Source: a virus
Lineage: Duplodnaviria > Caudoviricetes
Direction: 5' to 3' (one strand)
DNA length: 64,000 nt
Virus record (IMG/VR): IMGVR_UViG_3300043959_000228
Of the stretch, positions 2,717 to 36,289 are shown in pieces (the first letter of the stretch is position 1; each line of letters opens with the position of its first letter). A model generated the notes under the pieces. The model saw only the letters and a list, made by a program, of their open reading frames with translations. It was not told the origin of the DNA and did not search any database. Made by a program: the position numbers and the translations under genes.

Positions 2717-2795
2717 TTAGACGACATCGTTTTCGTGAATATGATATAATATCGATACGATGCTATGATTATCGTAATAGGAAAGGATACGATCG

Positions 2796-3443: not shown

Positions 3444-3536
3444 CAGCGTAAGACCTTTCAGCCTATGGCGTGTCTAATCGCGCGTATATGATACAATAGA
3501 TTCTACTATCAAATACTGATAAGATGGAGATGTATC

Positions 3537-4909: not shown

Positions 4910-7048
4910 GTGGCTATGAATAAGACCGCATCAGTTGATGCTGATAACTACACCGCGGACGATATCCTGCATTTCGAGTATCCATTATCGATATGGAAGC
5001 GACCATCCATGTATCTTGGTGAACGTGGAGGACAGCAATCAGTTGGTATTAGAGAGTTGACCGATAACGCGACCCAAGAAGGCCTACGTGGATTCGCTGA
5101 TCGTGTTCGAGTGGTCTTTAATGAAGATGGGTCAATCATCGTTCAAGACAATGGACGAGGACTTCCTGTTGACATGAACAAGAAGAGCCATGAGAATGGT
5201 ATCATCCTGACGATGGCCACACTTCACGCAGGTGCAAACTTCAAGTCAGACGTTAAGGCTGGGCAAGCTGGAGCTGGTCTTAACGGTGTTGGCGCATCTG
5301 TTACGAACGCCTTATCGAAACGATTCGACGTCCTCGTCTATCGTAATGGTAAAACCCATAGTCTGTCCTTCCAGAATGGCTATGCTGGACACTTCACTGG
5401 TGATGGGCCTGACGCTGACTTCACGAAGAGTGATGATATCGTAGTTACTAAGGACAATCGTCCCGCGTCAGAGAAAAAGTCTTGGAAAACAGGGACATGG
5501 ATTCGTCTATGGTATAACAAGGAGCGATTCCCAGAGGACGAGCATGTCGATAGGGACGATCTTATTGAGCGATTACGTGGTGTCAGTTACATCATTCCGA
5601 AGCTGCACATTGACATTCAGGATAGAATGCGTGTCAACGAGGATGGATCTCCTTATGAATACTCCTTCTACTCAGAATATGGCATCCCAGAATTCGTAGA
5701 GAACACGGCCCCCGATGAATTACTTCCAGAGTCAAATACGAATGGCTCAGAGTTTGAGAAGAAGGGCATTTACAGTATTAGCGTTGAGGGTCATTATCAA
5801 GAGCACACAACTGACGAACATGGTAAGGCGATTATCGCTGATCGAACAGTCACGGCTGATCTCGCCATGAGATGGGGTATCGGTTATGAGAAGACCCTGA
5901 AATCCTATGTCAATACGATCCAAACACATAATGGAGGCATTCATGAGGAGGCCTTCGAGAATTCCTTAACGAGGAGCGTCGTCAAGAAGATGGACTCCAT
6001 GAGGAGCGTCTTAACGAAGAAGGACGAGACGCCAATATCCGATGACGTACTATCTGGTGCTACAGTGATCCTATCAGTCAATGTACCCGAGCCACAGTTC
6101 GTTGGTCAGCAGAAGGATAAATTGTCTGGGCCTGAGGTCAAGAAAGCTCTTACAACCGCGTTGTCCAAGGGATTAAGCGACCTATTCGACTCGAATAAGA
6201 GTTTGCCGGCCTTTCGGGCAATCTTCGACAAAATTAAGACCACGGCTAATGACCGGCGTTCTGCTGATGAAGCGAAACTGTTGAAGCGTCAGTCACACCG
6301 AGTAACTAGTGCCTCGCTGCCAGCCAAACTATCCGATTGTGATATGGTTGGTTCCTCAGAATCAGAGTTACTGATTTGTGAGGGTGATTCAGCCGCGGGA
6401 ACAATTGTGAAGGCTCGTGACGCGACGTATCAGGCTGTCATTCCTATTCGAGGTAAGATTCTGAATTGTCTGAAAGCGTCGATGAGACAAATTCTGAAGA
6501 ACACGGAGATTGCTGACATTGCTAAGGCTCTAGGCGCAGGTATGGGCGACACGTTCGACTCTGATAAACTTCGATATGGGCGAGTTATCTTCGCTGCTGA
6601 TGCTGATGTGGATGGATTACAGATTGATAATCTGCTCTATACGGTTTTCAATAGATTATTCCATGATATGATCGTTGAGGGCAGGGTGTTCCAGGCCGTA
6701 TCACCATTATACGAGATTCGTTCTGGCTCTGGAAAGAACCAATCCACGTTCTATGCTATTGATGGTGATGAACGTGATAAAATTACTAAGCGGCTTGATG
6801 CTCAGAAGAAGACGTATAAGGTTGATCGTGATAAGGGACTCGGTGAGATGGAGCCAGATGACTTCTGGAATGCTGTGCTTGATCCTGAACAACGAACCTT
6901 GAAGCGAATTACTCTTGATGACGTGGCTCAGGCTGAGGAGGCGTTGACCTTAACGATGGATGATTCATCTGACGAGAAGAAGGATTTTATGGGCGACAAC
7001 TTCCAAGTAGCTATTGACACTGGGCTCATTGAAGGCTTCGGAGACTGA
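4910..7048 (+). CDS. gyrB: type IIA DNA topoisomerase subunit B (GyrB/ParE family)
   Basis: RPSMYLG, ELTDNA, DNGRGLP, EGDSA, PIRGKILN, DADVDG and KGLGEM motifs. Confidence 0.95.
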   Translation: MAMNKTASVDADNYTADDILHFEYPLSIWKRPSMYLGERGGQQSVGIRELTDNATQEGLRGFADRVRVVFNEDGSIIVQDNGRGLPVDMNKKSHENGIILTMATLHAGANFKSDVKAGQAGAGLNGVGASVTNALSKRFDVLVYRNGKTHSLSFQNGYAGHFTGDGPDADFTKSDDIVVTKDNRPASEKKSWKTGTWIRLWYNKERFPEDEHVDRDDLIERLRGVSYIIPKLHIDIQDRMRVNEDGSPYEYSFYSEYGIPEFVENTAPDELLPESNTNGSEFEKKGIYSISVEGHYQEHTTDEHGKAIIADRTVTADLAMRWGIGYEKTLKSYVNTIQTHNGGIHEEAFENSLTRSVVKKMDSMRSVLTKKDETPISDDVLSGATVILSVNVPEPQFVGQQKDKLSGPEVKKALTTALSKGLSDLFDSNKSLPAFRAIFDKIKTTANDRRSADEAKLLKRQSHRVTSASLPAKLSDCDMVGSSESELLICEGDSAAGTIVKARDATYQAVIPIRGKILNCLKASMRQILKNTEIADIAKALGAGMGDTFDSDKLRYGRVIFAADADVDGLQIDNLLYTVFNRLFHDMIVEGRVFQAVSPLYEIRSGSGKNQSTFYAIDGDERDKITKRLDAQKKTYKVDRDKGLGEMEPDDFWNAVLDPEQRTLKRITLDDVAQAEEALTLTMDDSSDEKKDFMGDNFQVAIDTGLIEGFGD

Positions 7049-7069
7049 TAAGGAGAGGTATAAGACAAA

Positions 7070-9478
7070 ATGGTGCGTAAGAAGAAGAATCATAGTGAAT
7101 TGACGGAGGAATCCCGTCTGAAATTCACGAAGGTCGCTAAGAATCTACAGGTTGTGTCGACACAGGACTGGTTGAAGACGAACTTCATTCCCTATGCCTG
7201 GTCATACACACTTGACCGAGCATTAGTTGATGTCTCCGGATTGAAGCCAGTGCAACGTAGAATTCTGTATACCATGTTCAAAAGGGGTCTCAGCCCGACC
7301 AGTAACAGAGTCAAGGTGGCGACGTTAGGCGGAGCGGTGCTGCAATTCCATCCTCACGGTGATGCGTCGGTCGTTCAGGCTCTGAAGAACATCGAACGAA
7401 AACACATTTTCAGGGTGCCATTAATCGATGGTAAGGGAGATTTTGGATCCATCGGTATGCCCGGCGCCGCTGGTCGTTATATCGAGGCTCGACTGTCTAA
7501 AGCTGCTTGGTTGAACGTTGAGGATATTAGCCAGAACGCTGTAGAAATGATCCCCAATTATGACAATACAACAGTTGAGCCAAAGCGTATTCCCGTCAAA
7601 TGGCCTGTTGGCGTCATTAACGGTGGATCTGGAATGGCTATCGCTTACGCGTCGAAGATTCCATCTCATAATCCTGGTGAGATTATGAAGGCGTGTATCG
7701 AATTAGTTAAGAATCCAAACGCAACGCATAGGAAATTAGAATCGATTATTAAGGGTCCTGACTTCGCTATGGGTGGTGTTATTGTCAGTAATGATGGTAT
7801 CAAGGATTATCTAGAGACTGGTTCTGGAACGTTCACGCTGAGATCAAAGTATGAGCTCATACCAATGAAGCGTGGCGCGTATCGAATCGAATATTATGAG
7901 ATTCCATTCGGTACGAATCCTGAGAAGATTATTGAGGACATTCAGAAGCAAATGGATAAGGGGAATCTTAAGGAGATCTCTAATTATAAGAACCTTTCTG
8001 ATTTGAAGCATCCTGTCCGCATGATTGTTGAGGTGAAAGCCGGTTCTCAAATTAAGAAGGTCATTGAGGATCTCTTCAGGATGACCTCGTTGCAGATACG
8101 ATTCTCAGTGAATATGACGACCATCGTCAATAATCGTCCTGAACAATTGCCTATGAGGGATATCCTATTAGACTTTATCGAATTCAGAAAGCTATGCATT
8201 GTTAATAAGACCAAATACATCCTTTCTAAAAAGCAAGACCGCCTCCATCTTATTGATGGATTAATGAAGGTTCTACTAGATATTGACGCTACCATCAAAA
8301 TTATTCGTGGTGCAGACAATGTGGATATTGCTCGTGAGAAACTGGCGAAGAAATTCCATATTGATGATGATCAAGCGAATTACGTCCTGTCATTGCAATT
8401 GCGTCGATTGACGAAGATGGATAAGCTAGAGTTGAATAACGAACACGATCAGCTGATTGACGAGGTTACATCAATGACTGATCTTATCAGTGACGGCACA
8501 AAGCTGAACGATTATCTTATCAAGGAGTTCAAGGAGACACTGAAAGTCATTGACGATGAACGCTGTACGGAGATTTCTGATCTCAGTGACGAGGAGTTCA
8601 ATAATCAAAAGACGACAGAGGTCAAGCAGATGAAAGCCGCTGGTAAGGGTGTGAAGACCTACGTGTACCAATTAGCTGACGGATCAATCTTCAAGACTCC
8701 GGTGAAACTGTCCACGGCAAAGGATCTAGAACAATCTAATCCTAGTCTTAAAGCCACGCCAATCACGTCAATGATGACCATGCCAGGTAATGCTGACATG
8801 GCTGTCCTTGATTCATCTGGACAGGCTTACACAACAAGCTTGCTCAGTATCGAGGATAATAAGAGCATCGACTTGAAGAAAAGTGGACTTCATCCTAATA
8901 AGCACACTAAGCCATTACTTACCATTGGTGATGGAGAATCAACGATCCTACTGGTAACGAAGACAGGAAGAACCAGACATATTAAGGTAGACAATGTCGG
9001 TAAGTGGTCTTCTACTGATGTCGTTAAACTAGATGATGGGGATGATATTGTTGGAGCTGTTGACACGTCGTCAGCAGTCAAGGGGTCAACGGTTATTATG
9101 GTTAGTAAACGTGGTAAGGTTCTACGATTCCCTCTAGATACATTGAAACCCTGTAATGCTGGATGTCAGACTGTAGCCGGTATGAGATTAGGTAAGGGTG
9201 ACGAGGTTGCATCAGTGACTATCGCTCGTCCAGATGCTGAGGTTATTGTAACGACATCAAGTGTGACGGCTAAGGCTACGCCAGCGAAAGATATTCCCGT
9301 CCAGAGTAGAGGTGGCGGCGGATCTAAGTTGCATCCAATCCTTGCTACTGATAGTATCGATCAGCTAGCCGTTGATCCAGTATTCGTATATCATGGTAAG
9401 ATTGTCCCTGCACCAGCGCCATCAGCTAGAGCAAGTCGTCCAGCGCCAATGCGAAAAGGCACCTTATTGTCTATGTGA
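7070..9478 (+). CDS. gyrA: type IIA DNA topoisomerase subunit A (GyrA/ParC family)
   Basis: GLKPVQRRILY, HPHGD, catalytic RY (AAGRYIEARL), IPSHN, LQLRRLT and a beta-pinwheel-like CTD. Confidence 0.95.
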   Translation: MVRKKKNHSELTEESRLKFTKVAKNLQVVSTQDWLKTNFIPYAWSYTLDRALVDVSGLKPVQRRILYTMFKRGLSPTSNRVKVATLGGAVLQFHPHGDASVVQALKNIERKHIFRVPLIDGKGDFGSIGMPGAAGRYIEARLSKAAWLNVEDISQNAVEMIPNYDNTTVEPKRIPVKWPVGVINGGSGMAIAYASKIPSHNPGEIMKACIELVKNPNATHRKLESIIKGPDFAMGGVIVSNDGIKDYLETGSGTFTLRSKYELIPMKRGAYRIEYYEIPFGTNPEKIIEDIQKQMDKGNLKEISNYKNLSDLKHPVRMIVEVKAGSQIKKVIEDLFRMTSLQIRFSVNMTTIVNNRPEQLPMRDILLDFIEFRKLCIVNKTKYILSKKQDRLHLIDGLMKVLLDIDATIKIIRGADNVDIAREKLAKKFHIDDDQANYVLSLQLRRLTKMDKLELNNEHDQLIDEVTSMTDLISDGTKLNDYLIKEFKETLKVIDDERCTEISDLSDEEFNNQKTTEVKQMKAAGKGVKTYVYQLADGSIFKTPVKLSTAKDLEQSNPSLKATPITSMMTMPGNADMAVLDSSGQAYTTSLLSIEDNKSIDLKKSGLHPNKHTKPLLTIGDGESTILLVTKTGRTRHIKVDNVGKWSSTDVVKLDDGDDIVGAVDTSSAVKGSTVIMVSKRGKVLRFPLDTLKPCNAGCQTVAGMRLGKGDEVASVTIARPDAEVIVTTSSVTAKATPAKDIPVQSRGGGGSKLHPILATDSIDQLAVDPVFVYHGKIVPAPAPSARASRPAPMRKGTLLSM

Positions 9479-11490: not shown

Positions 11491-12465
11491 ATGTTAGCAT
11501 CAAATAATCACGCAAGCCCATCCTCACATCGTCAACCATTAGATGCAGATGACATCACCTTAATGCGTCTTGGTCATAAAGCGTCCGATGGATATTTCTT
11601 CACGCTAGATGAAGAGCTCTTCCTAGGTAAAATGATTAGATTATCGAGGACTGATTGTTCAGCGAGAGCAACACGAAGAGCCAGTAGAGCGAAACAATAT
11701 CTTGCACAGGCTAATCAACGATTAGTCTTTAAAATGGCTAATAAAGTCTATTCGAGTTATCCTAAAGGAACGACTCGTGAGGATGTCGTGTCCGCAGGAA
11801 ATCTAGGTCTCAGCAGAGCATTAGAAGATTATGATGATACCATGGGTAATAAATTGTCCACATATGCTACATGGTGGATCAGACATTATATTCAACGATT
11901 AGGTCATAAAATCGCTCGCATTGGTACTCTGCCTGATAGCAAGATTGGTATCATATCTGACGTTAAGAAGGAGACACTCCGCATTGAGGAGGAGGGCCGA
12001 TCAGTAACGAGTGAGGAAATGAAGACGATTCTCCAAACCCATGGTATTGATGAGGCTGAGTACAATAAGATCATGTCATTCAACAATACGCCATTCAGTT
12101 TTGATGCGCCAGTATTCAACGATGATTCTACTGAGGCTTCTGAGGTGATGAATTATGATGATACTCGTAATGAAATTATGGGTACGCCATTGGAGACGCC
12201 TGAGGGATCAGCAATCAAGAATGATACGATCAGCATATTCAATAAGGCCCTATCAGAATTGACGCCACTACAACAATCTCTCATTAACATGTCGTATATT
12301 GAGGATCGGCCTATGGGCGTTAATGGAGAAATTAAAAGAACGCAAGCGTCAATCCGTAGGACTCTTGGCGTCACGAAATCAGTAGCTGAAAGAGAATTGC
12401 AGAAGGGTCTCGCTCATCTTCGCGAACAAATGACATCATATGGCTATGGACCAAATCAGGAATGA
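11491..12465 (+). CDS. sigma-70 family RNA polymerase sigma factor (RpoD/SigB-like regions 2-4)
   Basis: ANQRLV, GNLGLSRA and LSTYATWWIR motifs; SFDAPV; region-4 HTH; AAGGAG RBS. Confidence 0.9.
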   Translation: MLASNNHASPSSHRQPLDADDITLMRLGHKASDGYFFTLDEELFLGKMIRLSRTDCSARATRRASRAKQYLAQANQRLVFKMANKVYSSYPKGTTREDVVSAGNLGLSRALEDYDDTMGNKLSTYATWWIRHYIQRLGHKIARIGTLPDSKIGIISDVKKETLRIEEEGRSVTSEEMKTILQTHGIDEAEYNKIMSFNNTPFSFDAPVFNDDSTEASEVMNYDDTRNEIMGTPLETPEGSAIKNDTISIFNKALSELTPLQQSLINMSYIEDRPMGVNGEIKRTQASIRRTLGVTKSVAERELQKGLAHLREQMTSYGYGPNQE

Positions 12466-12525: not shown

Positions 12526-14802
12526 ATGAGTACATCTGAGGACACGTGGCATATGACGCCTAATGGCCCAACACCATGTCATGCAAAGATGAAGGAACGG
12601 TGTCCATATCGTGACAGGACACACGGGTCACAAAAGGATCTAGAGCGTCAGTATGAATCGGATATGACCATCGTAAATGATCTTAAGCATCGATTGACCA
12701 CAGCTGCACAGGCTTATTATCAGGGATCTGATACCGATTCACCAATGACCGATGACGAATACGATGCTGGTATCAAATACCTCAAACAATTGAATACCTC
12801 GTATCGTCTTAATGATCAGGACATTACGAATCTTATCGACGGTAAGGTAGCGGGTGGCACGACAGTTGACGTGAAGAATGATCACAAAGTCCATCACGAC
12901 GTACCAATGCTATCATTACGTAAAGCCGATAGCGAGGAGCAAGTGACCAGTTATCTCCAGGATATGGAGACTCAAGGAGCCACCGGATTCAAATTACAGG
13001 CTAAACTTGATGGTATTGCCTGCTCCGCAGAATACGAGCAGGGCCACTTGGAGAGGATGTCTACTCGTGGTAATGGTGCTGATGGTGAGGATATGTCATA
13101 TCTCGTGGAGAACCCAGACGTCCAAGTTAAAGGTCTTCCACAACAGTTGAACGGTAAACTGGCGAATGCTGACGTCGAGATTAGAGGAGAGCTATTCCTT
13201 CGACCATCTGAGTTTGATAAGATGAATGCAGCTAAACGAGCCTCAGGAGACGATGAATACAAGAATCCTAGGAACACGAATGCTGGTATCGTCAAACGAG
13301 CGGCTAATGGCATGCATGGAGAAAAAGCTACTCTGCAATTTGTCATGTACAAGATTGTCGGTCATAACATATCAGAGGAGGACCTAGTCAGTTCTGGTGT
13401 GGCCGAAGTATCTAGAGTGACGAAGGAAGAATGGGATAAAACTGGACTTGCTAGACCGGATCAACTGTCCATATCTATGAAGGATAGAACACCTGATGAG
13501 GTCACGAATGAGACCATGAATATCATTAATGCCTTCGGACCAGTTCGTGATGAATTAGATTTGCCAACCGATGGTATCGTCATCAAGCCGATCAATGAGC
13601 AAGCAATGGACGATCAGATGGGATCGAACGCTCATCATCCATTATCACAATTAGCCTGGAAGTATCAAGGAGCGAAGGCTCAGGTGAAAATTACGGGTGT
13701 AAGCTGGACTGTAGGAAAATCAGGTAAGCTGACGCCTACGCTTCATTATGAGCCGACAGCATTCGGAGGATCAATTAACGCGAACGCTACTCTGCATAAT
13801 CCAGCTATCTTAAATGAACTTGGCCTATCCATAGGAGCTGTGGTCGAGGTCGAGAAACGCCATGATATTCTTCCTGAGATTATTCGAGAACGACCTATAT
13901 TCACGCCCAAGGACAGCTCCATCATCAAGCCACCCGAACATTGTCCATATTGTGGATCTTTTATCAGTTCTTCTGATAGATTGTCCTTCTGTCCTAATGC
14001 TAAATGCCCATCACGTGGAGCATACATGTTGAAAGCGGCCGCTAGTAAGGGATCGTTGAATTTTGATGGTATGGGCAATCACCTCATCGAATCTTTACAG
14101 GACAATGGACAGGTGTCAACCATAGCAGATTTCTACGATCTTACTGAGGATTCATTATCAAACACGCCAGTAGGCATAAATGCTGACGGCAAGCCAAAGA
14201 TCTTTGGACATACACGAGCTAAGCATGTCATGGATTTTATCACGGCAAGTAAGAAATTGCCATTTCATAAGGTACTACCAAGTCTATCTATTAACGATCT
14301 CGGTCCTCAAACGGCTAAAGCCATCATTAAGGAATATCCTTCTATTGACGCTATTAGACAAGCGTCAATAGATGATCTTAGCACAATTGATGGTATTGGG
14401 CCTGAGACGGCACGTAAAGTCAAAGAGGGCATAGATGATCAGTGGGACACCATTGAACGCTTGCGTAAAGCCGGATTGCAATTTGAAGAGCACGATGATC
14501 ATGCCATGAATCCTATGCGCGATGACGACCCGGCGGTTAAGGCTGTTAAGGGGAAGTTTTTCAGTATCAGTGGTACTGTGCCATCGGGATATGCTAATCG
14601 TTCGGAGTGGCAGGAATTCGTTTCAGCTATGGGTGGAACTGCTCAAGGATCACCGAATAAAACCACGGATTATATGATCGGTAATCCAGATGATACGTCA
14701 AGTAAGATCATCAAAGCTAAGAAATTAGGCGTGACGATCATATCTCCAGATGACTTCATGAGAGCCGTGAGAAATGGTTCTTTCGAAGATAACGTGGCGT
14801 GA
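12526..14802 (+). CDS. ligA: NAD-dependent DNA ligase with an extra N-terminal Cys/His module
   Basis: MTDDEYD, PMLSL, KLDG, TRGNG, EIRGE, NPRN, DGIVIK, C4 zinc finger, HhH repeats and BRCT. Confidence 0.95.
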   Translation: MSTSEDTWHMTPNGPTPCHAKMKERCPYRDRTHGSQKDLERQYESDMTIVNDLKHRLTTAAQAYYQGSDTDSPMTDDEYDAGIKYLKQLNTSYRLNDQDITNLIDGKVAGGTTVDVKNDHKVHHDVPMLSLRKADSEEQVTSYLQDMETQGATGFKLQAKLDGIACSAEYEQGHLERMSTRGNGADGEDMSYLVENPDVQVKGLPQQLNGKLANADVEIRGELFLRPSEFDKMNAAKRASGDDEYKNPRNTNAGIVKRAANGMHGEKATLQFVMYKIVGHNISEEDLVSSGVAEVSRVTKEEWDKTGLARPDQLSISMKDRTPDEVTNETMNIINAFGPVRDELDLPTDGIVIKPINEQAMDDQMGSNAHHPLSQLAWKYQGAKAQVKITGVSWTVGKSGKLTPTLHYEPTAFGGSINANATLHNPAILNELGLSIGAVVEVEKRHDILPEIIRERPIFTPKDSSIIKPPEHCPYCGSFISSSDRLSFCPNAKCPSRGAYMLKAAASKGSLNFDGMGNHLIESLQDNGQVSTIADFYDLTEDSLSNTPVGINADGKPKIFGHTRAKHVMDFITASKKLPFHKVLPSLSINDLGPQTAKAIIKEYPSIDAIRQASIDDLSTIDGIGPETARKVKEGIDDQWDTIERLRKAGLQFEEHDDHAMNPMRDDDPAVKAVKGKFFSISGTVPSGYANRSEWQEFVSAMGGTAQGSPNKTTDYMIGNPDDTSSKIIKAKKLGVTIISPDDFMRAVRNGSFEDNVA

Positions 14803-22078: not shown

Positions 22079-23848
22079 TTGAAGAAGAAAAGAACGACGT
22101 CTATCACGACGGACACTATGTTGTTCTCAGGTGTAGGACTGCCGAAGATTGAGTATGATTTTCATCCATCGTATCCTATTACGGATGTGAAGATACCTTA
22201 TGCCATCGATGAGCCTTATGACGCTGATCATGGTTTGAGGAAATATGACGCTGAGGCCGATGAAGCGATGCGCGAGAGCATGAAGCAATTCGGGTTCATT
22301 GATCCTATCGTCATTACCGAGGATGGATCAATCATTCATGGTGTCCATCGACTTCTTGTGGCCATGGATCTGCAACAGGCGAAGGTGCCTGTTCTTATTA
22401 TTAAGAATTGGTATAAGACCCGTGATGAAACGCAATTCTATAACATCATTGCTAATAAGTTGAATGATTGGTCAACATGGCTAGCTCCGAATGTCGATAA
22501 AATTCTGAGATCAGTTGACGGTGGCGTTAAGAACACGGTTATCAGAGGTGACGATGGCACATTCATTGTCGTGCCTGATGAAGCTGGTGAATATCGCGAT
22601 CTAGCGAAGAAATTAGGTCTCTTCGTTGATGTCATTCCCCATCAATTGTGCGCATCAACTGTTGATCTCTTGTTACTGGCTAAGATGCGTATTAAGACGT
22701 TAGGTCGTAGGTATCAGTATAACGATGAACAGATTCTGTATATTGAGACTCTTAGGGATCAGATTGATACGTATCGGAGAAAGGCAGTTGACGCTGGTCT
22801 TGATAAGACGTCTAATCTTAAGCAGAAACTCGATCAAATGAATATCTGGGATACGAATAATATGAATGATGGTATTGCCGTCGCGCGTATCGTCTTCCTA
22901 CACTCTATTGGTCTTCCTAATGAGCAGATCGCTGCTGAGGTTGGCGTTCCTGTTGATAATAAGGCTGACCGTGAGAAGGCCCGCGAAGCGAATATTAGTG
23001 CATTCATGGAGCAGGTCACCGTTGAAAACGCGATTATGAGATCGTCTAAACGACCGTTCGATCCTTTGCAATCATATGGTTACTGGATTAAGGAAACGTT
23101 AGTGTCTCGTCATGATGTTATGAAGGATCCTGAGGTAGAGGAAGCATTCCATCAGCTAGAATCCTTCAGAGTGTCAGCAGATCAAGTGGCTAACGAGGAT
23201 GGATTGATGCCTCCTTCAACCCGATTGGATCTGTCATCACCTGAGGCTAACGATCTTTTCCATAAGACCGTGGATTTGATTACGAAGAAGATATCGCGTA
23301 ACGATCAGGATGATCTTCCTCAGGCTGTTATTGAGGACTGGGTGAAATGGCCGGAGAAATTGAAGTTCTATGCTAACGAGTGCTTCAGAAACGTGATTGC
23401 TGTGGATAAGAAAGTTCATCCTAAGATTGCTAAGGTTAAGACACCTATGGATGTTAAGACTACACGTCAGACAACTGACAAGGCTTGCTCTAAACTGGAG
23501 TGGAATGAAATTCGCTACCTCGATGCTGTTTGTGATGGATCTATTGAGGAACCAGCCATTGATCTGAATTACGATTTGATTGCTGACCGTAAGGATCTGA
23601 GTGACGATGAGGCCTTAGCCCTGGTCGCCGCTGACGCTAATGCTCGTAGGGATCAGGAGATTGCTCAGTTACGGAAGACTATTGATCGTGAATCAAGCAA
23701 GATCTACGATTCGATGGTTGCTCGTGATTTTAACCAGATTCTCATTGATATTAGGGGTAAGTATAAGAAGGGTCCGTTGAATCTCTTCTCTACCGGACCT
23801 AATCGTGATGGGGACATGAGTGCAGATCCCGCATTGGATAAGAGGTGA
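22079..23848 (+). CDS. ParB/Srx N-terminal domain protein with a large unknown C-terminal region
   Basis: SMKQFGFIDPIVI..DGSIIHGVHRL..A..L...VPV..NKLN; TTG start with AAGGAG. Confidence 0.8.
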   Translation: MKKKRTTSITTDTMLFSGVGLPKIEYDFHPSYPITDVKIPYAIDEPYDADHGLRKYDAEADEAMRESMKQFGFIDPIVITEDGSIIHGVHRLLVAMDLQQAKVPVLIIKNWYKTRDETQFYNIIANKLNDWSTWLAPNVDKILRSVDGGVKNTVIRGDDGTFIVVPDEAGEYRDLAKKLGLFVDVIPHQLCASTVDLLLLAKMRIKTLGRRYQYNDEQILYIETLRDQIDTYRRKAVDAGLDKTSNLKQKLDQMNIWDTNNMNDGIAVARIVFLHSIGLPNEQIAAEVGVPVDNKADREKAREANISAFMEQVTVENAIMRSSKRPFDPLQSYGYWIKETLVSRHDVMKDPEVEEAFHQLESFRVSADQVANEDGLMPPSTRLDLSSPEANDLFHKTVDLITKKISRNDQDDLPQAVIEDWVKWPEKLKFYANECFRNVIAVDKKVHPKIAKVKTPMDVKTTRQTTDKACSKLEWNEIRYLDAVCDGSIEEPAIDLNYDLIADRKDLSDDEALALVAADANARRDQEIAQLRKTIDRESSKIYDSMVARDFNQILIDIRGKYKKGPLNLFSTGPNRDGDMSADPALDKR

Positions 23849-23852
23849 ACTG

Positions 23853-25025
23853 ATGAGCCCAGTATTTATTCCGAGTAAGGGTCGTGCATCTAATTGCAAT
23901 ACCCATCGTAACTTAGAAGCCTTCGATATGCATAATTGGGTGTATATCGTAGAGCCAGATGATTATTGGTCGTATATTCATCGTCTCCGTGATGATGGTG
24001 TCTACATGCCGGAGACGCATGTCTTCGCTTTCGATGTGGACAGGTTCAAGAGTCCTCGAAGTAAGAATCATCCTGATGGATTCGATTATTGTGACGATCT
24101 AGGATGGCGTCCAGGATTGACTACTGGACCTGGACCTGCACGTAATGCTCTGCATCAGCTAGCCATTGATATGGGTATTAAAACCTACTGGATGATGGAT
24201 GACGACATCGTATCATTCTCTATTGACGCCTTCTACTTCCAGAAGAACATTTGGACGAAGGATCTTGCTAATGGTGGCGTGAAGGAACGTCGTATGAGTC
24301 TTGTCGACATTTTCGATTTATATGAACGCTTCTTGGATAAATTTGATAACATTGGACTCGCTGAAATTGATAAGCAGGGATTGGTTCAGAATCATAGGAA
24401 GAACAGTCACTTCTCAGTGAACTGTAAGACCTATACGTGCATCAGATTCAGAACTGATGGCCCAAAGATTCCATGGCGTTCAAGATTTAATGATGACGTG
24501 ATGATCTCACTTGATTATGAGAAGAGAGGATTCGTGAACGTATCGAGCAAGATTCTCTCCTATCAGACACCAGACACACAGAAGCAGGCTGGAGGCATGA
24601 CTGAGGCCTTCCATCAGGAGGGAACGCTACGTAAGGTGAAGTATCTTGTCAAGCAGTATCCAGAGACGACGTTTGCTATTCTGAAATTCGGTAGGATTCA
24701 TCATTTTGTTGATTATTCAAAGTTCAGGCAGAGTCTTGTCAAGAAACTTGGACCCGAGACGATTGAGGACATCATGTCTCTATCGTTTGATCCTGATGGA
24801 TCGTTCCTGCCATATATGGAGGGCGTCACCAGCCAGGCTGATCTTGATGAACATTGGAGAAATATTGATGATGCTCTAATGAGACAATACATTCAGGATC
24901 AACAGGATGCAGGATTCCACTTCGGAGAGGGTAATAGGACGATCATGCGTAAGGAACTGTTAGATGACCCTGAGGCCAACGTCAAACAAGACGATGTCGT
25001 ATCTCAGGACGACGTCGAGTTTTAA
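23853..25025 (+). CDS. GT-A fold glycosyltransferase, phage GREB1/TET-associated (TAGT)-like
   Basis: PVFIPSKGRA, IVEP, GPGPARN, YWMMDDD, WRSRFNDD, TQKQAGGMT and KFGRIHHFVDY motifs. Confidence 0.75.
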   Translation: MSPVFIPSKGRASNCNTHRNLEAFDMHNWVYIVEPDDYWSYIHRLRDDGVYMPETHVFAFDVDRFKSPRSKNHPDGFDYCDDLGWRPGLTTGPGPARNALHQLAIDMGIKTYWMMDDDIVSFSIDAFYFQKNIWTKDLANGGVKERRMSLVDIFDLYERFLDKFDNIGLAEIDKQGLVQNHRKNSHFSVNCKTYTCIRFRTDGPKIPWRSRFNDDVMISLDYEKRGFVNVSSKILSYQTPDTQKQAGGMTEAFHQEGTLRKVKYLVKQYPETTFAILKFGRIHHFVDYSKFRQSLVKKLGPETIEDIMSLSFDPDGSFLPYMEGVTSQADLDEHWRNIDDALMRQYIQDQQDAGFHFGEGNRTIMRKELLDDPEANVKQDDVVSQDDVEF

Positions 25026-25037
25026 GGAGGACGATTC

Positions 25038-25916
25038 ATGTCAAAATCATCGTCAAAGAAATCATCACCAAAAGATGATGTGGCCATATCAGGTTATGCT
25101 GACATATCCTCGAAGGAGGCTAAACAGCAGACCATCATCGGTATCATTGTGGTTATACTGATTGTGGCCATTGTTGGAGGCATTGTCGCTTGGAGGGTAA
25201 TAGCCAGTCACAATGCGTCATCGAGTACTGAGCAAGCGCTCGTCACAGCACAGAAGAACATCACGTCATCAACAGCCGTCAAGCCATCAAATTGGATAGC
25301 TAAGGATGGCGCTATCGTTTTCAATAAGAATGGTATTGTTGAGCATCCTGATACTGCTCTCACTGATAGTGAAAAGAAGATGAAACAGGTAGATGTGTAT
25401 CTCGATTTGAACTGTCCTGGATGTGGCGCTGTTGATCGTAGTCTGAATATGTATTATCAGCAGTACTTATCTTCTGGGAAAATCATTCTGCGGATGCATC
25501 CAATTGCTTTCCTCGATGCTACAAGTATGGGTGATCATTACTCCACTAGATCTGCTAATAGTGTGTATAGGCTATTGGATATTGACCCATCAGCCGTGTA
25601 TTCGTATGTCACCTATCTGTTCTCAGATGGCGTACAGCCAGGTGAGGGTAGCGATTATAAGAAATTCACTGACGAGATGCTTATATCAGCAGCTAGGAAA
25701 GTTGGCGTGACATCAGATAAAGTGTCTGAGTTAACTGATAAGAAATACGCGACGTATGTAAAGAACGTCACATTATCAGTGGTGAATAATACTGATTTAT
25801 GGAGACCTAATGCTCAGCAGTTCTCAACGCCTGTTGTCACTATTGATGGTAAACAGTTAACCTTTGATACCAGTGGCGCATTCGTTAAGCAATTCACCAC
25901 TGCGATTGTTGGCTAA
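25038..25916 (+). CDS. membrane-anchored DsbA/thioredoxin-fold oxidoreductase
   Basis: N-terminal TM, DLNCPGC, HPIAFLD..YSTRSAN and the STP cis-Pro motif. Confidence 0.85.
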   Translation: MSKSSSKKSSPKDDVAISGYADISSKEAKQQTIIGIIVVILIVAIVGGIVAWRVIASHNASSSTEQALVTAQKNITSSTAVKPSNWIAKDGAIVFNKNGIVEHPDTALTDSEKKMKQVDVYLDLNCPGCGAVDRSLNMYYQQYLSSGKIILRMHPIAFLDATSMGDHYSTRSANSVYRLLDIDPSAVYSYVTYLFSDGVQPGEGSDYKKFTDEMLISAARKVGVTSDKVSELTDKKYATYVKNVTLSVVNNTDLWRPNAQQFSTPVVTIDGKQLTFDTSGAFVKQFTTAIVG

Positions 25917-26000
25917 ACGCATAAGGTCGTTAATCTCCTTGTCCTCTAACACGTTATATTGTACTTGTCTAACGTTGTTATCAGTACAAGGAGATTTATT

Positions 26001-27284
26001 ATGGCCGGATTCCATATCACCGCTAACGGCGACGTGAAAAAGTGCACTGCCGAGAAGAGAGCATGCCCGTTACGAAAGTCAAATGGTGATCCTGTTCCCC
26101 ATTATGCTACGGCTGAACAGGCCTATGAGGCGTTATATGCTAAGAAGAGCCTATCCTTAAATGAATCTTTGAAATATGAGGAGAAATACGCTGATTGGGC
26201 GGATAAGGATCAGGACATCGAGAAAATTATCAATAACGCCTTCACCGGTAAGAAATGGATTAAGGCTAAAATTGGTAGTGAGTCAATCACCCTACCAGTA
26301 AAAAGCATCCGACAGTCAAGTAAGAGTAAGAACATCACTGATGCTCTACGTCGTGATTTCGACGCTACCATGGCCGCGCAGAAGGCCTTACCATCAACAA
26401 CTAGGATGGCTACTCAATACGCATCATTATCATCCTTAGAGGGTGATATCAAAATCCTTAAAGCAAGAGCATCAGAGGACGCTATATCAAATGTCATGTA
26501 TGTAAACGCGGCTAATGATGGAGCCTTCCATGTGCAGACATCAGCATCAATTGATAAGGAACGCTTACTCTCCGATCTTGACGCTAAGCAGGTTGACGGT
26601 AAGGATCGAGAAGCGCTGTATACTACTAGTGATAAGGGCTACTCAGTGTCGAAGGTGAAGGCCGCGTTTAACGCCATCATGGCCGAGAAAATACCAAAGG
26701 GATCTAAGGGTGCGCCTGCCGCTAGGAAAGCCGCATGGGATCAAAGCGGATTAGCTCATGAGAACATATCGTACGTGCCAGATCCTAAGATGTACACAGA
26801 CGTGATGGCATCTAATCCAGAGGCCGTGATTGCACCAAGATTCTCCGATGGGCAAGTAGATTCAATGTCCGGATCAACTGTAAGAGCAACCCTATGTGAG
26901 CTTGGCGTTCAACATCAGGCTCTGAAGGACGCTGTTACGAATGATGAGGAACGATTACGTCGTGAAAGCATGAAGACATCGAATAATCCAACAGCTGCGT
27001 TTAAGAATCTCGCCGATCAACCGTCAGGTCACCTTAAATTCAAGGCTTCGAAGAGCACAGTATTAAACGATAAGGCCATTGATGACTTCGCGGCAGCCTA
27101 TGGATTATCGAAGAAGGATCTAAGGAACACGAATCATAATATGAGTGTGGATAATTTGAAACGATTCTCCGATGCTCATGGCATGAGCGCATATCGATAT
27201 CTCAAGCCACGTAAATCTGTGAGTTTCCGTGATATGTCTGATCAGAAGAGTTACGATCAACATAACGTGGTTGCGAGGGGATAA
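26001..27284 (+). CDS. hypothetical protein with N-terminal His/Cys motif
   Basis: AAGGAG RBS places the start at 26001 (MAGFHITANGDVKKCTAEKRACP...H). Confidence 0.75.
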   Translation: MAGFHITANGDVKKCTAEKRACPLRKSNGDPVPHYATAEQAYEALYAKKSLSLNESLKYEEKYADWADKDQDIEKIINNAFTGKKWIKAKIGSESITLPVKSIRQSSKSKNITDALRRDFDATMAAQKALPSTTRMATQYASLSSLEGDIKILKARASEDAISNVMYVNAANDGAFHVQTSASIDKERLLSDLDAKQVDGKDREALYTTSDKGYSVSKVKAAFNAIMAEKIPKGSKGAPAARKAAWDQSGLAHENISYVPDPKMYTDVMASNPEAVIAPRFSDGQVDSMSGSTVRATLCELGVQHQALKDAVTNDEERLRRESMKTSNNPTAAFKNLADQPSGHLKFKASKSTVLNDKAIDDFAAAYGLSKKDLRNTNHNMSVDNLKRFSDAHGMSAYRYLKPRKSVSFRDMSDQKSYDQHNVVARG

Positions 27285-30347: not shown

Positions 30348-30700
30348 GGGGTCGAAATGGCATCGATTGACTCTTATAACTGAATAGTGCAGGCGATGGA
30401 ATAGTAGTAGTACCATCTAAAAACTATCTGCTAACAATAATAGCTGCTAATACCAGTTCTGCTTTCGCGCTAGCCGCGTGAGCCGTGGATATATGATGTC
30501 AACGCCTCATCATACTATCCGCGTCAATCTAGGCGTCGGGGGATGATTCTAGAACTCAGTCATCCTGGTTGTTGAGTTCACCATTGATATGATCATATGC
30601 GTGTCATCAATCCTATCATATCAACATTATTGATGAGAAAGCCTGTACATCACTATCAGGGCGAGAGAGCAAGACCCGGGTTCGAATCCCGGCGACTCCA
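30348..30700 (+). ncRNA. ssrA: tmRNA; tag (A)ANTSSAFALAA encoded at 30446..30481
   Basis: GGGGTCG/CGACTCC acceptor stem with G3-U, discriminator A, T-arm CCGGGTTCGAATCCCGG, and a tag ORF ending in ALAA-stop. Confidence 0.93.
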
Positions 30701-30803
30701 CTGTCATCTTGTATACATATGTGTACAAGATCAATATGGTGCAAGATCGTATATGCATATGGTACAATTCCTCATAGTAATAGCATCTATTAGAGGAGGC
30801 CTT

Positions 30804-32774: not shown

Positions 32775-34589
32775 CTACAGTCTGTTCCTAATCATCCTTG
32801 TACGATACTTCTTGACGTATTGATAACATGACTCCTCATCGTGGAACATAGCTTCTAAGCTGATATCTTTACCAATATCCTTCTCGATACGTAATCTGGC
32901 GGCCTTTGAACCGGCTCCACGTAAAGCAGCCTCAAGATCCTTAACTCTATGCTCATTATCCATAAGGCCTTCTCTGGCTTTCAACGCTCGTCTTCTCACA
33001 GCGTCATCAGCTTTCTTAGCGTCAGAGTCAATCATGAACGCTTCATCAGAGAGATCGTGACCCTCCATAATGACATCGTCAATAGATCGACAACGACTTA
33101 AAGCTACATATCCTAATCCACGTTGAAAGCAGTTACTAAGATTAATGACTGCTCCATCTAATGTCTGACCCTGAGATTTATGGACAGTGATTGCCCAGGC
33201 TAATCGTAACGGAAGGTACCGCACGAGAGCATCGGTAATCTCAACTTCCTTCAGTATTGTTGATCCATCATCAGCAATCACCGGTTTCACCTCAGTGTGC
33301 GTCTTAGTCGCGTCGATATAGTGAATCGTCACCTCTCTGAGCTCTTCATCTAATGATGGATCTAAGTTCTCAATATCCATATCATCTGATGATCTACTGT
33401 TCATTCTGACCTTGATAATTGGAATTTTCTGACCAGAACCATCCACAGAGGATCCTAATGATGTGACCACGCCCATCGATCCGTTTACATATCCTGGGAG
33501 AGCGTTATTTGATGTCAACATGATCACAGCGCCCTCCTTCAATTCTACGAATTTCAGATGTCCATTCTTAATGATTTCCTTACAATCATCTGGATCACCA
33601 TGACGTTGCAACGGATATCGATGTAATTCTGATGGTAATTCATCCAATCGATTCTGATTGTACTCATCAACACTTCTATTCACCGTGCGTAATCTCGTAT
33701 ACACTTTATCAGATGCTGGCTGTACATGGAATCTTGGATAGATGATTGGTCTCAACGTGTCAACATCAACGCCATCTCTGATACCATTGAGAAGATCGTT
33801 AAGTCTCATATCCTTAGATCTTCTGATCCTATCAAGATAGCAGAATTTGAAACCAGCTGATGAGAATAGTTTCTTACCATCTGTTCCCCTAGCGTGGAAG
33901 CAATATCCACTGTCGACTGGTTGACCAGAGCTGTCCAGCTGATGCGTATCGACTGGTGGTAACTGGAGGAAATCGCCAACTAAAACGATCTGTAATCCAC
34001 CAAAAGGTTGGTCCTTACCCCTAGCCTTACGACAAGCAGCGTCCAAATTAGACAGGAAATATGATGGCAGCATTGACACCTCATCAATAATCAAAATATC
34101 AGTGGCTTTAATGCGCTGCTTCGCTTTATACCATATCCTTTTCTGTTTCTCCGTCATTGTTGTCTCGTCAAAAGGGTCAACACTGATACCAAGACCTGAC
34201 CATGAGTGAATGGTCTTACCAAAAATCAAAGAGGCGGCGACGCCAGTACTAGCCGTAGCAGCAATTTCGATATTCCTGTATTCATTATTAAGACGAGGCC
34301 TAAATGAACAGATAATATCCTGGTACTTATCGATGACCCATGATTTTCCAGCACCCGCAGATCCGCAAAGAACAACATTATCACCGTGTAACAGCCAGTA
34401 AAGAGCCTCCTCTTGACTGGTGTACACGCTATTTGACAATTCATCATGCTCGTCAAAGACAGGTACGTACTGATGTAATCCAGCAGCATATGCTGCTTGT
34501 TGGATACTGGACGGTGATGACTCTATGGCCATATCATCAGAGAATAAATCAATCACGCTTCCTATAACCTCCATATTCAACCATCGCAT
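32775..34589 (-). CDS. Pif1-like SF1B DNA helicase
   Basis: GSAGAGKS, TASTGVAA, TIHSWSG, IIDEVSM, PFGGLQ..GDFLQLPPV, PLRLAWAITVHKSQG and YVALSR motifs. Confidence 0.92.
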   Translation of the reverse strand: MRWLNMEVIGSVIDLFSDDMAIESSPSSIQQAAYAAGLHQYVPVFDEHDELSNSVYTSQEEALYWLLHGDNVVLCGSAGAGKSWVIDKYQDIICSFRPRLNNEYRNIEIAATASTGVAASLIFGKTIHSWSGLGISVDPFDETTMTEKQKRIWYKAKQRIKATDILIIDEVSMLPSYFLSNLDAACRKARGKDQPFGGLQIVLVGDFLQLPPVDTHQLDSSGQPVDSGYCFHARGTDGKKLFSSAGFKFCYLDRIRRSKDMRLNDLLNGIRDGVDVDTLRPIIYPRFHVQPASDKVYTRLRTVNRSVDEYNQNRLDELPSELHRYPLQRHGDPDDCKEIIKNGHLKFVELKEGAVIMLTSNNALPGYVNGSMGVVTSLGSSVDGSGQKIPIIKVRMNSRSSDDMDIENLDPSLDEELREVTIHYIDATKTHTEVKPVIADDGSTILKEVEITDALVRYLPLRLAWAITVHKSQGQTLDGAVINLSNCFQRGLGYVALSRCRSIDDVIMEGHDLSDEAFMIDSDAKKADDAVRRRALKAREGLMDNEHRVKDLEAALRGAGSKAARLRIEKDIGKDISLEAMFHDEESCYQYVKKYRTRMIRNRL

Positions 34590-34627: not shown

Positions 34628-34770
34628 CTAAAAGTTGTAGTAAATTGTATCACGTTTTTTATGGCGGTACAAAAGTGAACTTTTAGCTGTACCTCCTGCG
34701 GAGGGCCGCAGTCCCGAGTAAGATTCGGGTGATTGCGGCGGGAGCTCGACAATTTGCGAGCTCCTCTTTA
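34628..34770 (-). ncRNA. putative omegaRNA (reRNA) scaffold overlapping the tnpB 3' end
   Basis: Four consecutive hairpins at 34666..34764 inside the CDS tail. Confidence 0.55.
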
Positions 34771-36136
34771 CTAGCTGCTTAAATTCTTGTCTGATATGAT
34801 TACGGTAAGATTTGGGTATCCTCACCTGACGCGGCGTCGGATGCCTCTTCTTAAGTTTCAGGATTTTATTCCTAGTCCTGCGTTTGTTCCGAACGGCGAG
34901 ATTCACCGCGGCCAGGGTGTCCCGGTCAATGGTTTTACCATCACTGAAAGTAACGGTTCTCCCTGATTTGACACCCTTATCCAGCGTGACCTGGTGCTGA
35001 GAAGAGGAATTCATCGCTGAGACCCGCTCCACGGTGATACCAGCCCGCTCCGCGGACGCAACGATCCGCTCATGAATCTCGGCGTGATTCCATTTACCGC
35101 CCTGGGATTTCAGCCACCGTAAGTCTTCAATATGGATCGTTGAGCAGTGTTGCTGCTTCGCAACGCAAACCACGGCTCGGCCGACCAAGTTGGCTAATTC
35201 TTGATGCTGATTCGTGATTTTCGATCTTACACGATTATATTCTGTCAAGAGCGTGGCTTCCCGGCCCGACAGTGCCGGGTTCTTTAAAGCTCGTATCCTG
35301 GAGATTTTTTCGTAGAGAGAATCCTTGTTCCTCTGAAGACGGCGAATCTTGTCGGCCAGTCGTTTCAGGTAACGATTCTGTATGTATTCATTACCATACC
35401 GGCCGGACGGGTATAAGGCCACCGCACTGAAAATCTTCACTCTACCAATATCTACGCCCAGAATACCGTTGCCTTCCGTCCGGCCCGGTGTGTATTCGAA
35501 GGCACATGTACCGATGAGTCTTCCGTCTCTTCTGCGACGGAAGAACCGTGGCTTTGCAATTTTGCCTGTCGGCTTCTCACTCAACGTATACGGGAACAAA
35601 ATGTCGTAGTCAAGCCACTTCCCGTCAAGAAGTTGGATTCGACAGGATGTACCCGTGAGCGTGAAATTCTGTGGAGCACTCACCGTGTAATCGAGTTGAA
35701 ATGTAGCCTCGCGAGCCATCTCGGGTTTAAGTTTACCTGAAAGAATATTCTCTACGCGACCCGAGGTCGCGTAGATTCTATGCTTCTTAGCTAAATTATT
35801 AAAAAGCTCAGGCGTAATTTTATCGTCATTATTCTTCAACTCATCAAAAATGATCTGGTTCTCAATCTTCGATTGCACCTCACGCCTGATGTTCTCGAAC
35901 AACATGATCCCGTACCAGGCGCGATTAGAAATAGGCCAGGTCTTCACACGCGCGCCTAGTTTCTTATTCATCTCGCGCCAAACATTACCCCTGTGTTGGG
36001 TGTAATCCACGGAAGCGATGAGCTTCCGTGATTCCTCATCCGAGAGGAAGAAGATGAGTTCCTTCTGGAGGAAATCGTATAGGGGTAGTAATTCGTCAGG
36101 GAATCTGATGTTGAAGGCTAGCCAGTGTTGCTTCAT
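34628..36136 (-). CDS. tnpB: TnpB-like RNA-guided RuvC nuclease (IS200/IS605/IS607 OrfB type)
   Basis: RuvC triad GVDIG, IEDL and DRDTLAAVNL; GGAGG RBS before ATG 36136; composition differs from the flanks. Confidence 0.85.
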   Translation of the reverse strand: MKQHWLAFNIRFPDELLPLYDFLQKELIFFLSDEESRKLIASVDYTQHRGNVWREMNKKLGARVKTWPISNRAWYGIMLFENIRREVQSKIENQIIFDELKNNDDKITPELFNNLAKKHRIYATSGRVENILSGKLKPEMAREATFQLDYTVSAPQNFTLTGTSCRIQLLDGKWLDYDILFPYTLSEKPTGKIAKPRFFRRRRDGRLIGTCAFEYTPGRTEGNGILGVDIGRVKIFSAVALYPSGRYGNEYIQNRYLKRLADKIRRLQRNKDSLYEKISRIRALKNPALSGREATLLTEYNRVRSKITNQHQELANLVGRAVVCVAKQQHCSTIHIEDLRWLKSQGGKWNHAEIHERIVASAERAGITVERVSAMNSSSQHQVTLDKGVKSGRTVTFSDGKTIDRDTLAAVNLAVRNKRRTRNKILKLKKRHPTPRQVRIPKSYRNHIRQEFKQLVKRSSQIVELPPQSPESYSGLRPSAGGTAKSSLLYRHKKRDTIYYNF

Positions 36137-36289
36137 TCTTCCTCCAAACCTGTATATATATATTATATCAAGAATCACGATGATTGACGAGATTCAATAA
36201 TTGTTAACGATGATATCATGTATGTTACCATAAATATCAATTATAAGAAATTATTGTTATTATACCATTCAATGGCTGTCTTGTAGGTG

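Follow-up and report, generated by a model that had tools for sequence, protein, structure and literature searches.

The DNA analysed here is a stretch of 64,000 nucleotides (nt), called the window below, which is filed in IMG/VR as the viral record IMGVR_UViG_3300043959_000228 and is read here as part of a giant conjugative plasmid-like replicon. At positions 22079-25025 it carries two adjacent genes that form a dedicated two-component module, as judged from protein family, sequence motifs, fold and gene linkage: a soluble glycosyltransferase of GT-A type from the TAGT family and a partner protein with a ParB-CTPase fold. Functional coupling of the two is the best-supported statement that can be made about this locus. 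The pairing goes far beyond chance, since the genes stay adjacent through rearrangements and even where their orientation differs, and the two domains are also found naturally fused. As for the function of the pair, a ParB-guided module that glycosylates DNA after replication is favoured with a probability of about 0.5. DNA would then be the substrate, the partner would bring the enzyme to it, and the sugar would serve against restriction.

The glycosyltransferase and its ParB-like partner

The glycosyltransferase gene (open reading frame B, ORF B; 23853-25025, plus strand) starts with ATG and encodes 390 amino acids (aa). Its start codon follows the TGA of the upstream gene (ORF A), which ends at 23848, after a gap of 4 nt, exactly as the first-pass annotation had described the two genes, and a Shine-Dalgarno-like AGAGGTG for ORF B lies within the end of ORF A. 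The protein matches the Pfam family TAGT (PF20691) with 79.7 bits against a cut-off of 27.5 (E = 3.6e-22), over positions 2-205 of the 205 in the profile, and it matches no other Pfam family, including Glycos_transf_2 (PF00535). All 46 homologues examined (46/46) contain PF20691. ORF B also matches phrog_842, which is named after the T2/T6 beta-glucosyl-HMC-alpha-glucosyltransferase (E = 6.4e-29). The TAGT family includes the T2/T6 enzyme that transfers a second glucose as well as phage DNA glycosyltransferases associated with TET/5mYOX enzymes (5mYOX, 5-methylpyrimidine dioxygenase). Thus, the proposed resemblance to TET-associated glycosyltransferases is borne out by the Pfam score, while the proposed resemblance to T-even enzymes holds for the T2/T6 enzyme and not for the alpha- and beta-glucosyltransferases of T4, because these have the GT-B fold.

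The motifs IPSKGRA, GPGPARN and MMDDD, which had been noticed in the letters alone, are present and fall on invariant or near-invariant columns of a 26-member alignment. These columns are I6-P7-S8, G10-R11, T91-G-P-G-P-A-R97-N98 and D116-D117 and, further downstream, W208-R-x-R211-x-N213-x-D215, G247-G248 and H283-H284. Phage GT-A enzymes shown to glycosylate 5-hydroxymethylcytosine (5hmC) in DNA have the active-site motifs R...DDD...EDY/F (bioRxiv 10.1101/2023.12.21.572611), and the corresponding set R...DDD...[E/N][D/E]D is found in ORF B as R11, D116-D118 and N213-D214-D215. Because of this correspondence of conserved motifs, the enzyme is very probably active. Its catalytic core, from residue 1 to about 300, has a net charge of +4, and it is followed by an acidic tail (aa 301-390, net charge -17). 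This tail of 90 residues is an addition of the giant-plasmid clade and ends with EF in most members and EY in one. The highest Kyte-Doolittle mean over 19 residues is 0.39, and the protein has neither a transmembrane (TM) segment nor a signal peptide, in agreement with the soluble enzyme that had been proposed. Profile searches against sequences of the PDB gave nothing real for ORF B and marginal ParB matches only for the partner.

The partner gene, ORF A (22079-23848, plus strand), encodes 589 aa from a TTG start that is preceded by AAAGGAG at 9 nt upstream. The corresponding database gene call (P0003) is 576 aa long and begins at Met14 (nt 22118), and the TTG start is plausible because homologues carry the same basic N-terminal extension. 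No Pfam match was found for ORF A in the scan, including its approximately 420 residues beyond the ParB-N part; even for the orthologue in a complete 420 kb relative of the element (G001, see below), the ParB_N profile stays below threshold (19.9 bits against a cut-off of 26.3). However, residues 46-145 match 13 PHROG families, mostly with a ParB-like annotation (E = 2.6e-15 for ParB families) and including one phage DNA-methyltransferase family (phrog_498). The protein contains IIHGVHR, so that its arginine box reads GVHR in place of GERR, as had been noted before.

The assignment to the ParB/sulfiredoxin (Srx) fold, which the first-pass annotation had made from the sequence, is corroborated by structure prediction. 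An AF2 model of partner residues 1-271 (m4eb1c266c961), built from an alignment of 21 sequences, has a mean pLDDT of 72.7. Foldseek matched it to ParB-N of pNOB8 (5k5d, E = 1e-5, the best match) and, with E values up to 1e-3, to the other members of the group formed by Noc, the ParB proteins of B. subtilis and M. xanthus, PadC and KorB (7nfu, 6sdk, 7bnk, 6ryk and 8qa8). With VIA-align, Z was 11.4 for PadC (model residues 10-170), 10.4 for sulfiredoxin and 10.3 for KorB. An extended ParB-CTPase/Srx-type fold is therefore predicted by AF2, Foldseek, VIA-align and hidden Markov model (HMM) alignment at 22145-22627 on the plus strand (P0003 aa about 10-170), and in view of the ParB, PadC and KorB matches the conserved segment NDWS...DGG...E.GE.R is a part of it.

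In the HMM alignment, the phosphate-binding residues of M. xanthus ParB, Arg54 and Arg95, correspond to invariant R41 and R78 of the partner (P0003 numbering), while Gln52 of box I and Glu93, the residues for hydrolysis of cytidine triphosphate, are replaced by Gly and Val, respectively (residue roles: PMC13229309). In other words, the arginine of box I is kept as R41, and in the second box, HGVHR, Glu has become Val and the first Arg has become His with the last Arg retained. Since the phosphate-binding arginines are kept and both hydrolysis residues are replaced, the partner probably binds a nucleotide but hydrolyses it poorly. Hydrolysis residues are likewise dispensable in a published ParB activator of a phage T-dioxygenase (PMC13229309).

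Downstream of this fold, a conserved helical segment, LGRRYQYNDEQ.LYIE.LR... (22628-22879, plus strand), recurs in every distant member of the partner family, those from actinobacteria among them. It is followed by a candidate helix-turn-helix (HTH), VARIVFLHSIGLPNEQIAAEVGVPV (22880-22954, plus strand; P0003 aa 255-279), which occurs in the giant-plasmid subfamily only and has invariant columns in its alignment (A1). Outside this alignment, the candidate HTH has a weak lead in ESM Atlas to HTH-domain clusters, whose score of 0.82 is below the trust level. The remaining part, about 300 aa (22955-23845, plus strand), is predicted to be mostly helical from the AF2 model and two alignments (A1 and A5). 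It is specific to the subfamily, apart from a conserved FN..L..R.KY..GP helix at the C-terminus that is common to the wider family. The AF2 model of the full-length partner (m357fdb09a923) is poor, with an overall pLDDT of 60 and values of 70-88 in parts of the C-terminal helices, and Foldseek recovered from it the ParB-N part alone. No relatives of this highly conserved helical region are detectable. A fused dioxygenase in the C-terminal half was considered and rejected, as the region is predicted to be helical, shows no beta-rich jelly-roll and has no Pfam match. The partner has no TM-like segment (maximum Kyte-Doolittle 19-residue mean, 1.39). Near the two genes, no repeated or palindromic site stood out as a parS-like site, and no repeats, promoters or terminators above shuffled expectation were found around them.

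Conservation of the gene pair

Partners of this type are rare. A word-based search found only 10 homologues of near-equal length, which are 45-63% identical and conserved over the full length, and a profile search with the non-ParB part of the protein gave 13 representatives among 1.84 billion. Distant family members are composed of ParB-N, a core of about 140 residues and the C-terminal helix, and some of them add SAP or Rho_N DNA-binding modules. A partner-family gene stands beside a TAGT gene of the same clade in 10 of 11 independent loci (the window, L001, L006, L007, L009, L095/96, L097, L010, L011 and L098), the remaining locus, L012, having no partner within 9 kb.

In L001, L006, L007 and L009, where the partners are 45-63% identical, the order of ParB-like, TAGT and DsbA-like genes is kept, while the flanks differ and one to three small ORFs are inserted. 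On other elements (L095/96, L097, L010, L011 and L098), the TAGTs of this clade are 42-57% identical. The partner is a 376-aa protein encoded 2 nt upstream of TAGT in L095/96 (A1 profile, E = 7e-53) and a 493-aa protein whose gene overlaps TAGT by 1 nt in L097 (E = 2e-43). There are more divergent cases. In L010 (Leucobacter insecticola), L011 (Microbacterium) and L098, a gene for a 427-448-aa protein is convergent with TAGT; genes for an integrase, a resolvase and an FtsK-like protein are present on the islands L010 and L011. BLASTP (E = 2e-4) and hhalign (probability 92%, E = 5.5e-7) show the convergent protein to be a distant relative within the partner family, and the profile of this protein matches the partners of L095/96 and L097 as well as the family members of L013 and L014 with E values from 1e-24 to 1e-33. 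An all-against-all comparison found no third gene family common to all groups of loci, so only the partner and TAGT are shared. No family match was found for a 184-aa conserved neighbour in the actinobacterial loci or for other small neighbours. A phylogenetic-profile test in Microbacteriaceae was uninformative because TAGT is present in only 1 of 301 genomes.

Phages and prophages have a similar arrangement. A short ParB-N ORF lies directly upstream of TAGT in 66 of 72 viral loci, in agreement with the earlier statement that ParB-fold genes often neighbour such glycosyltransferases in phages, and the same order is found in approximately 37-40 of 68 genome loci. This pair is usually located just before the terminase genes. 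In a beta-proteobacterial contig (CAIWPS010000039.1; L083:2219-4288, plus strand) of a metagenome-assembled genome, both parts are found in one frame, with ParB_N at aa 229-283 and TAGT at aa 421-619. In a quick tree, the element-borne TAGTs cluster together (SH-aLRT 82), and a long branch (1.73, SH-aLRT 99) sets them apart from the phage/prophage clade to which it leads.

Genes for sugar nucleotides are found beside some of the relatives. UDP-galactopyranose mutase (GLF) is encoded directly upstream of the pair in two unrelated loci (L097:5118-6302 and L098:22-336), which hints at galactofuranose as the transferred sugar there; GLF is absent from the 420 kb relative G001. Furthermore, 14 of 79 viral loci (L101-L179; e.g., L120:1007-1405) have a gene for a cytidylyltransferase-like protein of about 132 aa (PF01467, E = 1e-16), which is located upstream of TAGT at about 0.9 kb from its start, and its presence suggests a dedicated activated donor in those 14 phage loci.

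The acceptor and competing explanations

In the favoured reading, the partner would use its helical and HTH-like region to bind the DNA of the element, possibly in the manner of a nucleotide-gated clamp, and would recruit or activate TAGT on double-stranded DNA (dsDNA) after replication. With a nucleotide sugar as the donor, TAGT would attach a sugar to the DNA, and the sugar-tagged plasmid DNA might withstand restriction or CRISPR nucleases when it enters a new host, or be marked as self. A loader specific to the replicon would explain how the mark is kept to self DNA, because a plasmid shares the cytoplasm with the chromosome. That the role of the partner is tied to the glycosyltransferase is suggested by its occurrence on small integrated actinobacterial elements, which need no partition system. 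The closest case known from experiments is that of a phage thymine dioxygenase that depends on ParB176 when the substrate is dsDNA, and only then; more generally, a subclass of phage T-dioxygenases has a requirement for a ParB-like protein that is specific to dsDNA (PMC13229309).

The locus shares several features with the phage clusters of 5mYOX/TET, ParB-like activator and GT-A enzyme (Burke, 2021, PMC8256090; bioRxiv 10.1101/2023.12.21.572611; PMC13229309). The glycosyltransferase belongs to the same family with the same active-site motifs, a ParB-fold partner is likewise encoded beside the modification enzyme, and the ParB hydrolysis residues that are dispensable in the published 5mYOX case are lost in the window partner. 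On the other hand, no dioxygenase, C5-methyltransferase or ThyA-like enzyme was found in the searches of the window and G001, and the locus resides on a conjugative plasmid-like element, not in a phage. The phage activator is a short protein of NBD and CTD, whereas the window partner, with its 589 aa, has about 400 extra conserved residues. Besides, the published ParB activates a dioxygenase, not a glycosyltransferase (PMC13229309), and no dioxygenase, with which such an activator is associated, was found beside the partner gene or elsewhere.

Phage and prophage cassettes of ParB-N and TAGT that have no hydroxylase are more similar in organization: they share the tight co-directional gene order and the TAGT motifs with the window pair and, like it, lack the acceptor pathway. 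They differ in that their TAGTs are only 25-33% identical to the present one across the long branch of the quick tree, that their partner is a ParB-N protein of approximately 210-240 aa as against 589 aa with conserved extra domains, and that they lie beside packaging genes, the window pair being located among plasmid replication and maintenance genes. The T2/T6 beta-glucosyl-HMC-alpha-glucosyltransferase is a soluble enzyme of the same Pfam and PHROG family that acts on DNA, but it adds a second glucose to glucosyl-5hmC, the product of a pre-replicative dCMP hydroxymethylase pathway that is absent here, and no ParB partner is noted in its descriptions (PMC13390438). Kinetoplastid JGT is a GT-A-type enzyme that glucosylates 5-hydroxymethyluracil (5hmU) in DNA and is close in structure to the phage GT-A enzymes (bioRxiv 10.1101/2023.12.21.572611); by description it is set apart as a eukaryotic enzyme with very low sequence identity that needs the JBP1/2 hydroxylases. 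KorB of RK2, Noc and PadC resemble the N-terminal fold of the partner (Z 10-11 for KorB and PadC) and are mobile-element-borne or orphans without ParA that have roles other than segregation, while the window partner differs from them in its box (GVHR, not GERR), in its different and unmatched central and C-terminal regions and in its association with a glycosyltransferase. The word glycosyltransferase does not occur in a survey of ParB-CTPase domain fusions. From the known cases, the locus differs in the location on giant conjugative plasmids and actinobacterial integrative elements, in the long and rare partner family, and in the convergent genes of the actinobacterial loci.

Several observations weigh against DNA as the target. 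The acceptor of every characterised relative of TAGT is 5hmC, 5hmU or a sugar already present on such a base, and no enzyme that makes such an acceptor was detected: Tet_JBP (PF12851), Thymidylat_synt (PF00303) and C5 DNA_methylase (PF00145) have no match in the complete 420 kb genome of G001, which has a single TAGT, nor among the 60 window ORFs scanned with Pfam, where the earlier failure to see TET/JBP or a hydroxymethylase is thus upheld. Tet_JBP has no match in the Leucobacter genome, either. In a survey of glycosyltransferases, about 65% of the contigs had no neighbouring 5mYOX or ThyS, and its authors regarded these contigs as less obviously related to DNA. The sugar-nucleotide genes beside the relatives (GLF in L097 and L098, and the cytidylyltransferase-like gene in 14 viral loci) would also suit a target in the cell wall, and the proteins of ORF A and ORF B are both acidic, with net charges of -16 and -13, respectively. 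In short, the locus passes the sequence tests for TAGT and fails the acceptor-enzyme context that named the family.

In the classical route, another part of the element of 0.4-0.5 Mb would encode a hydroxylase, for instance a 5-methylpyrimidine dioxygenase that has diverged strongly, and the 5hmU or 5hmC made by it would then be glycosylated by TAGT in a manner like base J. This is highly doubtful. No acceptor-making enzyme was found in the complete 420 kb relative either, which makes the route less likely, and the actinobacterial elements of about 12 kb hold the pair without any suitably sized candidate with an oxygenase signal. There is no third gene family common to the loci, and among the neighbours in 159 phage and genome TAGT loci no oxygenase or TET-like cluster was found; these neighbours are replication and packaging genes, HNH, N6/N4 methylases and the cytidylyltransferase-like protein. 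Tet_JBP had no match in five prophage-bearing genomes as well. Nevertheless, the negatives for Tet_JBP are weak, as no positive control was obtained in these searches. In addition, the majority of the ORFs of the element are without a Pfam match, and thousands of 5mYOX-like contigs escape annotation by the Pfam TET/JBP family (O'Toole et al., 2026, PMC13229309).

Or the pair may be a real functional unit that places the sugar on an acceptor other than a DNA base, either a DNA-bound protein, possibly the partner itself, or an envelope polymer such as teichoic acid, as with prophage TarP. This alternative, somewhat unlikely, draws on the absence of an acceptor-base pathway from G001 and the Leucobacter genome, on the sugar-nucleotide genes mentioned above, and on membrane proteins as neighbours in the window (the DsbA-like protein and orf102). 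The partner has an invariant Thr-rich segment, KTPMDVKTTRQ, which would fit a role as acceptor, and glycosylation of a protein has been reported for GREB1, a eukaryotic protein with a TAGT domain. For an envelope target in particular, ORF B is hard to place, since it matches TAGT rather than classical GT2 and has no TM segment or signal peptide, and the element has its own classical GT2 beside DUF6020 at 55471-57565; the near-obligate pairing with a ParB fold and the one fusion are also difficult to square with a wall-polymer enzyme. The first-pass annotation had suggested that a structural grouping with cell-envelope GT2 enzymes would speak against a role on DNA, but such a grouping does not discriminate, because the verified phage DNA GT-A enzymes themselves have TarP as their best match in the PDB (bioRxiv 10.1101/2023.12.21.572611), a match which equally lends itself to the envelope explanation.

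It is also quite improbable that ORF A is mainly the partition or silencing protein of the element, of ParB/KorB type, and that its adjacency to the glycosyltransferase is inherited synteny with no mechanistic link. A low-copy element of such a size needs a segregation system, the fold resembles KorB, Noc and ParB, and distant members of the family occur in L013 and L014 without an adjacent TAGT. This explanation gains some weight because the orthologue of ORF A is the only ParB_N match in the 420 kb relative. The adjacency, however, is kept where the flanks are rearranged, where small ORFs are inserted and where the orientation differs, and it reaches 45%-identical TAGTs on the small actinobacterial elements. 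Moreover, the partner has lost the catalytic Glu found in the GERR box of ParB, the short ParB-N proteins of phages obey the same pairing rule, and no ParA is adjacent, the nearest ParA-like ORF (41109) being located among pilus genes. Within glycosylation of DNA, an unlikely form is that partner and TAGT are self-sufficient and independent of a hydroxylase, with a new acceptor (a canonical base, the backbone or a DNA-bound protein) and with the long partner confining the reaction to the DNA of the element.

To our knowledge, phages and kinetoplastids are the known sources of glycosylated DNA bases, and in every case the sugar is added after a hydroxylating enzyme has acted. In the present locus, a DNA-glycosyltransferase family and its dedicated partner of ParB fold are found, with no hydroxylase in sight, on conjugative plasmids and integrative elements, which share the cytoplasm with the chromosome. 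With DNA as the target, sugar marks would help plasmids to pass restriction and CRISPR barriers, and the ParB partner would explain a modification confined to one replicon; with any other target, the very common ParB-TAGT cassette needs a different explanation. Should the reaction be independent of a hydroxylase, it would give the first glycosyl mark on plasmid DNA and a new chemistry for the whole class of ParB-TAGT cassettes.

The host element and neighbouring genes

The reading as a conjugative plasmid-like element, despite the viral label, is based on TcpE and a VirB4-type AAA_10 ATPase (E = 2e-49) in the window, and on the complete relative G001 (IMG/VR UViG_3300044557_000292), in line with the plasmid context that had been assumed from the start. 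G001 is 419,707 bp long with terminal repeats, is rated complete and is classed as a virus. Its proteins are 60% (partner) and 78% (TAGT) identical to those of the window, and it has a VirB4-type ATPase (E = 1e-48) and no match to Terminase_6C. G001 is thus probably a circular giant plasmid filed as viral. The database record P0003 of the partner comes from a contig of 491,046 bp, i.e., an element of about 0.49 Mb. The host is probably a member of Bacillota, because the neighbours in relatives include TcpE, sortase and DivIVA. No DNA nearly identical to the window was found in plasmid or phage collections. Other Pfam matches in the window are diverged GyrB/GyrA (4910-9478), a sigma factor (11491-12465), an NAD-dependent ligase (12526-14802), TelA, a PIF1-type helicase, a TnpB-like protein, DnaE (46877-50983), NucS, an SNF2 helicase and a TadC/T2SSF protein.

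Directly downstream of the pair, at 25038-25916 on the plus strand, a membrane-anchored DsbA/thioredoxin-like protein is encoded (Thioredoxin_4, E = 2.5e-7; TM segment at aa 33-51). Its gene follows TAGT in L001, L006, L007 and L009 of the giant-plasmid clade but is missing in the actinobacterial and other loci; being syntenic in that clade only, it stands outside the conserved two-gene core. The next ORF (25959-27284, 441 aa) was rejected as a part of the module, as L006 and L007 lack it and no relative is present in the actinobacterial loci. At 55471-57565 (plus strand), a DUF6020 membrane protein is followed by the classical GT2 (56855-57565, PF00535, E = 3.5e-17), and these two are probably a separate envelope-glycosylation pair of the element, in which the GT2 illustrates the envelope type of glycosyltransferase.

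In L013, a 550-aa protein of the adenylosuccinate-synthetase family (1943-3595), possibly a PurZ-like enzyme of 2-aminoadenine DNA, and a methyltransferase are encoded 3-5 kb upstream of the distant partner P0062, which has a SAP domain and no adjacent TAGT. Downstream of the family member in L013, and likewise in L014, there are an AAA_33 kinase and a T4 Rnl1-like ligase.

Furthermore, the DnaE genes of related giant elements harbor inteins with Intein_splicing and Hint domains (L006:14797-17881, L007:14288-17728 and L095:12102-14969), and those of L007 and L095 carry a Tn7 TnsA-like N-terminal domain, while the window DnaE shows no intein domain. A 516-aa ORF of the window (34628-36178, minus strand) has a weak match to a Cas12f1-like TNB domain, as in TnpB-like proteins, and adjoins the PIF1-type helicase (32775-34589). 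Besides its own GyrB/GyrA, sigma factor, NAD-dependent ligase and DnaE, the apparent giant conjugative plasmid has a tmRNA gene in the window, at 30348-30701 (plus strand), with the tag peptide ANTSSAFALAA.

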